Source: Lingula anatina
Lineage: Eukaryota > Animalia > Brachiopoda
DNA: 64,000 bases
Reading direction: 5' to 3'
Assembly: GCA_051362555.1 (NCBI GenBank)
Contig: CM120647.1
Span: 13,864,651-13,928,650, forward strand
This document shows positions 14,601-17,600 of the stretch, piece after piece (the first letter of the stretch is position 1; every line of letters starts with the position of its first letter). Both the position numbers and the translations under genes were made by a program. The notes below the pieces were generated by a model. That model was not told where the DNA came from. It made no database searches and saw only the letters and a program-made list of their open reading frames with translations.

Positions 14601-17600
14601 AAATGAAATGTTCTATTTATATGTCATTATCTAATATCTCATCTTCACCTGCTATTTGCAGCTGCACTTGTCCCATACTATTTTAAAATTATAAACTTAG
14701 TGGTGTCCTCAAAGGACCCATCACTATTATTTTACATTTTGAGTTGAAACTCAAAACGATCTTTATTACCTCCAATGAGGTCTTCTTTTGGCAGGTTCGC
14801 CTGGAAGGCCTTTGCAAATTTATTCAGGCAATCATTGTAGTCATCCTCAGAAACGGTTCCATTTTGAAGCACAATTCCAGATATAATCACCTTTGACTGA
14901 AAAAGTTCAAAAGTCGGTTACAAAGAAATAACAGCATCTACGTGCAATCAAGTAAGCCATTTTAATTTGATATCAATGTTCTTTTTTGCTTAAACACAGA
15001 AGGATATGACAAAAAGACATAGCTCAAAATAAATTGCTTACCATGTGCCCAGAGGTCTCGAGGTGAACAAGCGGCCATCCTGGTACCCCCGTAATTACCA
15101 TTTCATCAGAGTAGCAGGTCACCATCAGCAAGTGATTGATAGCCTTGGCATGCTCTTCAATGCGCATGCTCATAATTGAACCATACGACATACTGCACTC
15201 GTCAGATATAGAAGTGTTCCTGGCACTGCTTGTATTAAACCACAGCACCACTATATTGGAGGGCGCTAAAATAGAATTGATACCAATGAGTTATACTCTT
15301 TAGTAGCAGGAGATGACCAATGTATTTGCATGACAAACCATTCGACAATTTTATATTGGTTTGAATTGCGTCTTTGGTTTTCAATCAAGTTCGTATTGAA
15401 CAATCCATGAAAATAACACTCACCGGGCATACATAAGCCTGTCATTTCGGTTACAGCTTCCCCATAACCACAAGCCAACTTGCCAGGTTCGTATGTTGCA
15501 TCTACTAAGTTCATAGCAGGGCAATCTTTGGTAGCCTCCATCTCCCACGCAGCTATAGACATATTGGACATTGCTTCCCTCCTGAAATACTCTAACATGT
15601 TTTGGCCACAGCGTTCAACATGGTGAGCCAGAAGTGTCATGTCATCATCCTCGGCATACAACTTCATTTTCATCTTCAATACCAAGTTGACCTAAAAAGG
15701 TTAGGACATTATGCTTAAAACACTGCTTTCCATAGGTAAGACCTTCAAAATTAACCAACTTAAGTCAGCGTTGGTAATATATATATATATATTTTTTTTT
15801 TCTGAACACGGAGATCGGAAGTAGTTTGAGCCCTTGACATTAAATTGCTTGACAGTGGGTGTATTTCTTTTCAGCACTCGCCTTACACATAATGCCAATA
15901 ACTTACATAATTGCCTTCTGCCATTGCATACACTCCAGTGACCATGCTGTGAGTAGACAGTTCTCCCTCACACACGTACTGTGACAACTGTGTCATGTTT
16001 TGGCTCATGTCATTGGTGGCAAACCACATTTTTACACCTTCCTCCAATGATCCAAGGCAGCTTTGAGATACATTTGTTCCAGCATCAAGCTTGATGTGCT
16101 GGGTTACCAAAATGCCTGAAACATAATTTGATGATCAGGAAAATTGCCCACTTTTCCATATTTTACATGTCAAAGGTAATGCTTTTGTTACAAATTGTTC
16201 AAATGTACAGAAAGCATTTAAAATGTTGAAAGGAACTGATTAAACTGCCGTTTTCTTAAATGCATACCTGGTGTTTCTCCCTTTGGTTCAACATTTGACC
16301 CTGGAAATACAAAGATCATTTCAATACCATTGCCGATTCAAGGTCAATAAAATGCACCAACATGTTCAAATGTTTACGTGGGTACCAATGGAGCGCTCAC
16401 TACAATTTACTTCAATTAAGCCTCATCTCAAAGACTGCGTGTATTTTGTCAATAAGTCAAAGTGTGGATACTATCACAATACTCTTTACTCTTGGCAAAC
16501 ATCGACTTAAACCTATATCTGAATGGTGTTATGTTTGTCAAAAAAATACTTACGGCTTTCATTGCAGAATCGGCCAAAGTAGCCATCATAGCATTTACAG
16601 GAATAATCAACTTCACCCCTTGGCATACATTCACCCATGACACATCGGTTGGCATGACAAGCTCTTGGCCCTAAAACATCCATTTTGAATGTTTACAGTA
16701 ACTATAGATCAAAAGTTTATTCACTGACTCGTTACTTCTTTCATGGCTTTTTGCATTGACAAGAGTGCAGAGATCAATTTTGAATGTAGATAACAAACGG
16801 ATTCGAACTTACTAAAATGACATTTGTCAGTCTTTTCCTCATAAATGTATCCTCTGGCAGTGCAGTTCTTTAAACCAGTGTAGTATTGGGATGGGCCAGA
16901 ACTTCGTAGATCTGGGCATTTACCAGAAGTTGCATTGTCCATTCCTGAAACATTCATTAAACTCAATTAAAAATGCTCCGAAGTGTATCATTTGTGTCCC
17001 TTTAATATGACTTGCTGTCATCTATACATGACAGACATTTGCTAACGGCCTTTCAATGTCTCGTCTACACTCGATAAAATGAAATGTTCTATTTATATGT
17101 CATTATCTAATATTTCATCTTCACCTGCTATTTGCAGTTGCACTTGTCCCATACTATTTTAAAATTATGAACTTAGTGGTGTCCTCAAAGGACCCATCAC
17201 TATTATTTTACATTTTGAGTTGAAACTCAAAACGATCTTTATTACCTCCAATGAGGTCTTCTTTTGGCAGGTTCGCCTGGAAGGCCTTTGCAAATTTATT
17301 CAGGCAATCATTGTAGTCATCCTCAGAAACGGTTCCATTTTGAAGCACAATTCCAGATATAATCACCTTTGACTGAAAAAGTTCAAAAGTCGGTTACAAA
17401 GAAATAACAGCATCTACGTGCAATCAAGTAAGCCATTTTAATTTGATATCAATGTTCTTTTTTGCTTAAACACAGAAGGATATGACAAAAAGACATAGCT
17501 CAAAATAAATTGCTTACCATGTGCCCAGAGGTCTCGAGGTGAACAAGCGGCCATCCTGGTACCCCCGTAATTACCATTTCATCAGAGTAGCAGGTCACCA

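Follow-up and report, generated by a model that had tools for sequence, protein, structure and literature searches.

A giant gene built of tandemly repeated cassettes was found in a stretch of 64,000 nucleotides from the brachiopod Lingula anatina (assembly GCA_051362555.1, contig CM120647.1, positions 13,864,651 to 13,928,650 of the forward strand). This whole stretch is called the window here, and all positions refer to it. One unit of the gene, at 14770-16944 on the minus strand, encoded 370 residues that included two six-cysteine modules, M1 and M2. The explanation that we favoured, and considered somewhat probable, was that the unit belonged to a giant transcribed tandem-cassette gene, and that its modules were ancient duplicates, each folded as a disulfide-stapled alpha/beta sandwich, most plausibly of a very divergent, non-cleaving SEA-like type.

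The cassette gene and its transcription

The interval 14770-16944 contained exactly one unit, divided between seven exons with GT-AG introns, all on the minus strand (132, 117, 33, 209, 268, 224 and 127 nucleotides in order; 1110 nucleotides or 370 residues in total). The intron phases were 1, 1, 1, 1, 0, 1, 0 and 1 in order. Exon 1 (16813..16944, phase 1 to 1) encoded the C-terminal tail of M2 from the upstream unit, with the cysteines C4 (followed by proline), C5 and C6. Its placement rested on AG/GT borders, on the RNA joints 16943->14769 and 16669->16812, and on the same tail in the terminal exon of the gene. Exon 2 (16554..16670) had RNA joints on both sides and encoded an EGF-like domain with six cysteines in 39 residues, which passed the gathering score of the Pfam family EGF PF00008 (E 4.4e-05, 24.1 bits versus a cut-off of 21.5). 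Exon 3 (16268..16300) was an 11-residue linker with AG/GT borders and the RNA joints 16114->16267 and 16298->16553. The N-terminal and the C-terminal halves of M1 were encoded by exon 4 (15907..16115, phase 1 to 0) and exon 5 (15424..15691, phase 0 to 1), both placed by AG/GT borders and RNA. According to the AlphaFold2 model described below, exon 4 was predicted to contribute strand 1, C1, a long helix, C2 and strand 2, and exon 5 was predicted to contribute strand 3 and a helix with C3, followed by a tail of the form C4P-x16-C5-x12-C6. Exon 6 (15042..15265, phase 1 to 0), with AG/GT borders and the RNA joints 15265->15424 and 14896->15042, encoded the N-terminal half of M2 with C1 and C2. 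Exon 7 (14770..14896, phase 0 to 1) encoded the middle of M2, with the putative strand 3 and the helix bearing C3, and was spliced onto the first exon of the following unit.

M1 consisted of 159 residues from exons 4 and 5, with cysteine gaps of 28/48/28/16/12, and M2 consisted of 161 residues from exons 6 and 7 and exon 1 of the next unit, with gaps of 26/46/28/17/13. Proline directly followed C4 in both modules, and a phase-0 intron was located 21 residues past C2 in M1 and 24 residues past it in M2. M1 ran directly into M2, and exon 3 was the sole linker in the unit, which also had nine N-x-S/T sequons. The earlier note, made from the letters of this DNA before any of the present searches, had listed the two sets of spacings, the proline after C4, and the phase-1 bounds with a phase-0 intron 21-24 residues after C2. 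The spacings matched the spliced exons exactly, the proline was seen in the translated exons, and the phases were read from the exon borders.

The unit was transcribed and spliced as the exon model predicts. RNA runs were chosen by species label, and two of them, X8 and X9, carried the splicing evidence, with 115 and 91 reads, respectively, aligned to the unit at 92-99% likeness. The depth in these runs was confined to bins overlapping exons, and the 9 of 30 bins that contained only intron all had zero depth. RNA joints were found at all six introns, with ends CT..AC on the plus strand, that is, GT..AG on the minus strand. Moreover, a cassette-to-cassette joint (16943->14769, going back 2175) connected exon 7 with the first exon of the unit that follows in 8 reads of X8 and 13 reads of X9. 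The junctions 4|5, 5|6 and 6|7 were likewise spliced in two public gene models, P0001 and P0121, which are described below. Runs X1 and X7 had just 2 and 4 reads, all in exon bins and too few for joints, and no reads from runs X4, X2, X3 and X5 matched the unit. Since no X8 or X9 read was at least 99% identical to the window unit, the source of the RNA was a divergent allele, population or copy. According to passages of one study, L. anatina populations are markedly divergent (PMC13425148).

The introns flanking exon 4 had features of their own. The minus-strand sequence 16116-16206, in the intron 5' of exon 4, was homologous to the coding sequence of P0121 residues 425-444. In three X8 reads, the loose end before exon 4 read QIDGQDQKT (minus strand, by eye), close to QIDGQDKKT of P0121, so it seemed that in some expressed copy the exon preceding M1 was different or extended. 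The intron between exons 4 and 5 contained a (TA)n/(T)n microsatellite (15770-15809 and its equivalents), which varied in length between units and at which unit-to-unit alignments broke.

A blastn search of the unit against the window returned a tandem array (12126..64000, minus strand) of 16 complete units, arranged head to tail with a period of about 2476 bp and 98-99.9% identical to one another, introns included. The array left the window at its high-coordinate end, which was the 5' side of the gene, and the total number of units was at least 16. The 16 copies of each exon shared the same length, frame and splice sites and had no stops, with two exceptions. Namely, in the penultimate unit the EGF exon (14078..14194, minus strand) had the acceptor CG in place of AG (14194-14195), and the last exon 7 was diverged. 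Skipping of this EGF exon would preserve the frame, and in four X8 reads exon 1 was followed by a diverged, exon-3-like piece of 29 nucleotides and then by exon 4, the EGF exon being absent. The joined exons formed a single open frame of 6,034 residues with 291 cysteines, 148 N-x-S/T sequons and a pI of 5.16. Its terminal exon (11337..11683, minus strand) encoded a diverged M2 tail (CA for CP, gaps 17/13), then EAAED and a nearly pure (SG)n run of 71 residues, and a stop at 11339-11337. Since this M2-type tail ended the protein without an EGF domain after it, the tail was part of M2 and not of the EGF domain. The chain ended without a transmembrane segment.

We also considered the possibility that the array was not a working gene but a dead repeat or an artefact of assembly. 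Near-identical copies of 2.5 kb are hard to assemble, the public annotation had only a chimeric partial model, and the RNA reads, as described above, all stayed below 99% identity to the window unit. However, 30 exon sites varied among the copies, so that M1 occurred in 10 distinct versions and M2 in 6, and some units had different intron insertions. All 16 units were in frame with their splice sites, bar one acceptor, and two RNA runs contained spliced molecules with the unit-to-unit junction. An artefact or a dead repeat was therefore highly improbable. Comparison of the window with the RNA gave 18 synonymous and 22 other changes among the 40 differences listed of 50 (binomial p 0.0047 against a 25% expectation for the synonymous share), which we counted as evidence of selection. 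No cysteine was altered, neither among the window copies nor among the listed differences between window and RNA.

Several insertions broke the cassette period. Two of them, each of 3.75 kb (51609-55367 and about 57920-61679), were located at the same position of two units 6311 bp apart, in the intron between exons 6 and 7. They had terminal inverted repeats of 46 nucleotides that were 93% complementary, and no frame of at least 150 residues (the longest were 98 and 101 residues). This pattern suggested that a non-autonomous DNA transposon had inserted and was later duplicated along with its cassette through unequal exchange. Further insertions were found at 32173-34993 (2.8 kb) and at 37233-38153 (0.9 kb), the latter containing a 21/43-nucleotide tandem repeat at 37967-38090.

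Relationship between M1 and M2

Judging from their sequences and exon structure, M1 and M2 were very likely old duplicates of one domain. When six cysteines were placed at random in a chain of 161 residues, the five gaps were all reproduced to within +-2 in only 7 of 1,000,000 trials. The phase-0 intron fell in one and the same column when the modules were aligned globally (GNY|VNL in M1 versus GHM|SKV in M2), and both modules began at a phase-1 intron and ended at a phase-1 intron exactly two residues past C6. In addition, a cysteine-anchored, segment-wise alignment of M1 and M2 scored -52 versus a shuffle null of -102+-18, and this score was equalled by 10 of 2000 whole-sequence shuffles and by 20 of 2000 within-segment shuffles.

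On the other hand, general alignment methods that were not tied to the cysteines gave no significant relationship: a free Smith-Waterman comparison of the two modules had z 0.7, and the hhalign probability was 0.5%. Both results spoke against duplication and favoured the alternative in which the similar spacing arose by convergence or chance. The hydropathy correlation between M1 and M2 (r 0.32) pointed in the same direction. No shuffle reached it under a fixed alignment (0/5000), but 823 of 2000 shuffles were as high once they were re-aligned; since it was not significant in this form, the correlation was dropped and was not counted as evidence. We nevertheless considered independent origins very unlikely. 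They would have to account at once for five gaps within 2 residues, for the common CP pair, for the shared phase and column of the internal intron, for the end phase two residues past C6, and for an anchored score above 1990 of the 2000 shuffles. The idea of an old domain duplication beneath a recent amplification of the cassette, proposed in the earlier note, was thus supported by the cysteine gaps, intron column, end phase, anchored score and identity among cassettes, and not by Smith-Waterman or hhalign. The same Smith-Waterman value agreed with its remark that the modules share little other identity.

Family searches and predicted fold

The module had been described as unrecognised, and it remained so: Pfam, PDB sequence searches, a protein atlas and a set of 1.84 billion representative proteins were searched for a confident match to a named domain family, and none was found. 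In Pfam, neither exons 1, 4 and 6 nor the spliced model P0001 had a match at E<=10, exons 5 and 7 had chance-level rows only (E 0.02-0.27, far under the cut-off), and P0121 at E<=1 had no match in the region of M1 and M2. Queries of the PDB sequences with either P0001 or the M1 alignment likewise returned chance-level rows only, and the protein atlas had no usable match for P0001 residues 1-247 or P0121 residues 445-603. The scan of the 1.84 billion proteins with P0001 produced 120 matches, 118 of which touched only its last ~40-65 residues. Over the module itself, the scan gave only P0001 and P0002, an 85-residue fragment that was 57% identical and retained C3-C6, the CP pair and gaps of 28/16/12. 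Judged by sequence, M1 and M2 were a real, lineage-restricted and unnamed domain pair. Several known families were also considered by cysteine pattern or element order (VWA, C-type lectin, BRICHOS, NTR, SRCR and sushi), and none was backed by Pfam; VWA was ruled out additionally by the core of about 120 residues, which is too short. In the literature, no paper was found that combined Lingula anatina with the SEA domain or that named P0001 by its accession or locus.

The only close public protein was P0001, an uncharacterised L. anatina model of 290 residues that was 91-98% identical to the exons. Its last stretch corresponded to the N-terminus of amidase-type proteins in the two matches inspected, which identified P0001 as a chimeric model. 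P0121, an older model of 1076 residues from the same cluster, had a complete M1 and the M2 core between amidase pieces and other parts, namely a separate membrane anchor, a mucin stretch and a Pfam-verified SEA domain (residues 256-326, E 7.7e-12). Both models are chimeras in which the M1 and M2 core of one cassette was fused to exons of an amidase gene. None of the added parts, whether amidase, membrane anchor, mucin stretch or SEA domain, was present in the window. When the SEA region of P0121 (residues 245-350) served as the query, none of 636 candidate proteins reached E<=0.001.

An AlphaFold2 model of the complete M1 had a strand at residues 2-11, helices at 18-34 and 37-48, strands at 61-67 and 70-81, a helix at 88-113 and a 3-residue strand at 136-138. 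This corresponded to a beta-alpha-beta-beta-alpha core of about 115 residues and an ill-defined cysteine-rich tail (pLDDT, the predicted local distance difference test, of about 42-45 in the tail). A two-layer alpha/beta sandwich with a ferredoxin-like order was the best fold prediction from this model. In a structure search of the M1 model against 48,161 chains, SEA or SEA-like domains occupied 7 of the best 50 rows (ranks 1, 4, 8, 9, 13, 36 and 41), and the best of them was the SEA region of TMPRSS6. Residues 118 and 141 of TMPRSS6 fall in its SEA domain (PMC2958558), and Trop2, protocadherin-15 and CARD1 are described as SEA-like in parts of two sources (PMC6586460, PMC13184263). The weak Foldseek rows of the M1 model were ferredoxin-like folds, and rank 17 was occupied by a SEA domain. 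SEA modules are usually found beside EGF domains, with dense glycosylation, in extracellular mosaic proteins. A setting of this type was present here, with an EGF domain in each unit, the 148 sequons in 6,034 residues, the tail of SG repeats and a probable extracellular location. Given this setting and the modelled fold, SEA-like was the most plausible assignment of M1 and M2, held tentatively and at slightly less than even chances.

A number of results weighed against the favoured explanation. The M1 model had a pLDDT of only 48.5 and a predicted template modelling score of 0.39. Its alignment had six rows, mostly exon fragments that were 57-99% identical to the query, and the model was essentially a single-sequence one; the single-sequence model of P0001 had a pLDDT of 39, with 24-45 in the M2 part. 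With Foldseek, no PDB structure matched the M1 model at E<=0.001. For the P0001 model, where strand 1 of M1 was missing, the best 50 rows included KH/RbfA-type and metal-transporter C-terminal domains and none titled SEA. The SEA family of Pfam was not matched by M1 or M2, although the same scan recognised the SEA domain elsewhere in P0121, and hhalign of M1 and M2 against that verified domain gave probabilities <=1.2%. No GS[VI]xx cleavage motif was found at the turn between strands 2 and 3 (EGNY|VNLV in M1 and SGHM|SKVI in M2). An autoproteolysis motif of the GSVVV type is quoted for SEA in one source (PMC2958558). Only cleaving members of the family have such a motif. With respect to the gene as a whole, the 11 synonymous and 19 non-synonymous changes among the window copies were not different from neutral (p 0.11). 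Moreover, no signal peptide or 5' end was found within the window, and the extracellular location was therefore deduced from the domain content only. Accordingly, the disulfide-stapled SEA/ferredoxin-like fold suggested in the earlier note was plausible: the element order and the 7 SEA rows in 50 agreed with it, and the low pLDDT, Foldseek, Pfam and hhalign did not.

These results left room for an alternative in which M1 and M2 are a new family with its own fold or with a generic two-layer alpha/beta sandwich, the SEA rows reflecting no more than a common beta-alpha-beta-beta-alpha arrangement. We regarded this as a real but lesser possibility. A link to SEA was favoured over it by the 7 SEA or SEA-like rows of the best 50, including rank 1, out of 48,161 chains, and by the classic setting of EGF domains, dense sequons, SG repeats and tandem arrays of ~160 residues (the last as in passages of PMC10829539). 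Low sequence conservation is, moreover, typical of SEA domains according to the relevant part of PMC6586460.

In another alternative, each module is in fact two domains, a three-cysteine alpha/beta core and a small three-cysteine knot (truncated EGF-like or sushi-like), joined by one inter-domain disulfide. The tail of M2 was encoded by a separate exon with phase-1 borders, and the sole local hhalign match between M1 and M2 was from tail to tail (columns 116-156 versus 116-158, E 0.12). The tail was also the lowest-confidence part of the model, and its pattern C-x3-GY-x8-C offered a lead only, being reminiscent of sub-motifs of sushi and EGF domains. However, no intron preceded the tail of M1, and the tail had no Pfam match at E<=10, whether to EGF, sushi or any other family. 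Furthermore, with three cysteines in the core and three in the tail, at least one disulfide must connect the two parts, which would still make them one covalent unit. Overall, a division into two domains was unlikely.

Proposed role, related systems and flanking sequence

If the favoured explanation is correct, the product of the gene would be an extracellular, heavily glycosylated protein of the beads-on-a-string type, such as the core of a matrix or mucin-type proteoglycan in a matrix, mucus or coat. Its chain would include at least 48 small domains from 16 copies of EGF, M1 and M2, in which M1 and M2 may serve as compact, protease-resistant, glycan-bearing spacers. The near-equal gaps C1-C2 and C3-C4 (28/28 in M1 and 26/28 in M2) would be compatible with a pair of antiparallel helical segments held together at either end by the putative disulfides C1-C4 and C2-C3, and C5-C6 might close a small hairpin. 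Such a two-end staple could make the domain rigid and resistant to proteases.

Ser-Gly repeats beside acidic residues are the consensus for glycosaminoglycan attachment, and the sequence of the SG tail would suit a carrier of glycosaminoglycan chains. Lingula shell layers are reported as glycosaminoglycan-rich in passages of two studies, and no core protein for these glycosaminoglycans turned up in the same passages (PMC13425148, PMC9057340). A link of the gene to them is speculation. In its boldest form, M1 and M2 would represent a brachiopod-specific, unnamed extracellular family, with either a new fold or the most cysteine-rich derivative of SEA, and the gene would encode the missing core protein of the glycosaminoglycan-rich matrix of the shell or mantle, with chains on the (SG)n tail. 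We considered this combination distinctly doubtful. A giant glycoprotein with an (SG)n end was nonetheless a testable candidate for the core protein of the Lingula shell glycosaminoglycans.

The nearest analogue was MUC16 (CA125), whose tandem repeats also form arrays of about 160 residues. According to excerpts of one source, MUC16 has 19 repeats of 156 residues, each being a SEA domain with a conserved cysteine pair, and a Pro/Ser/Thr-rich O-glycosylated linker (PMC10829539). In contrast, the modules described here had six cysteines each, including a three-cysteine tail, and the only linker was the 11-residue exon 3. The unit also differed in combining two diverged modules with an EGF domain, which is lacking in the MUC16 repeats, and no sequence similarity to MUC16 was seen in the Pfam scans. 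Compared with the SEA family PF01390 (mucins, enteropeptidase, agrin and the TMPRSS family), the likeness consisted of the modelled beta-alpha-beta-beta-alpha order and the glycosylated extracellular setting near EGF. The full order in PF01390 is beta-alpha-beta-beta-alpha-beta, and the M1 model, at its low pLDDT, had only the 3-residue strand in the last place; M1 and M2 differed further in having no Pfam match, no GSVVV-type motif, six cysteines and the extra cysteine-rich tail. The divergent SEA-like domains (Notch HD, EpCAM/Trop2 C-domain, protocadherin-15 MAD12, dystroglycan, IA-2 and plant CARD1) are single, membrane-proximal proteolytic switches, whereas here at least 32 module copies were found with no terminal transmembrane segment. 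Finally, the EAAED and (SG)n sequence at the C-terminus resembled the Ser-Gly repeat of serglycin-type cores. Serglycin, however, is a small proteoglycan of intracellular granules, unlike this giant gene, and glycosaminoglycan on the SG tail here was putative.

The gene and its module were new to family databases and to the papers searched, and a giant cassette glycoprotein restricted to one lineage, with a divergent alpha/beta module, was a familiar kind of finding. A spliced and expressed gene of at least 6,034 residues was represented in the public annotation only by chimeric partial models fused to an amidase gene, and long-read assemblies can reveal such giant cassette genes overlooked by earlier gene sets. 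A module without a detectable relative in 1.84 billion representatives offered a clean case of origin, duplication and amplification of a disulfide-stapled domain. If the modules were ordinary divergent SEA domains, the finding would shrink to a lineage-specific mucin or proteoglycan gene.

Two open frames were observed beyond the 3' end of the giant gene. A 187-residue frame without a Pfam match was located at 7233-7796 on the plus strand; it may be an exon of an adjoining gene, or it may be due to chance. At 2569-6726 on the minus strand, downstream of the giant gene, there was an unbroken frame of 1385 residues encoding a polyprotein of the long terminal repeat (LTR) retrotransposon type, with reverse transcriptase, RNase H, an integrase zinc-binding domain and an integrase core (Pfam E 1e-12 to 4e-30).

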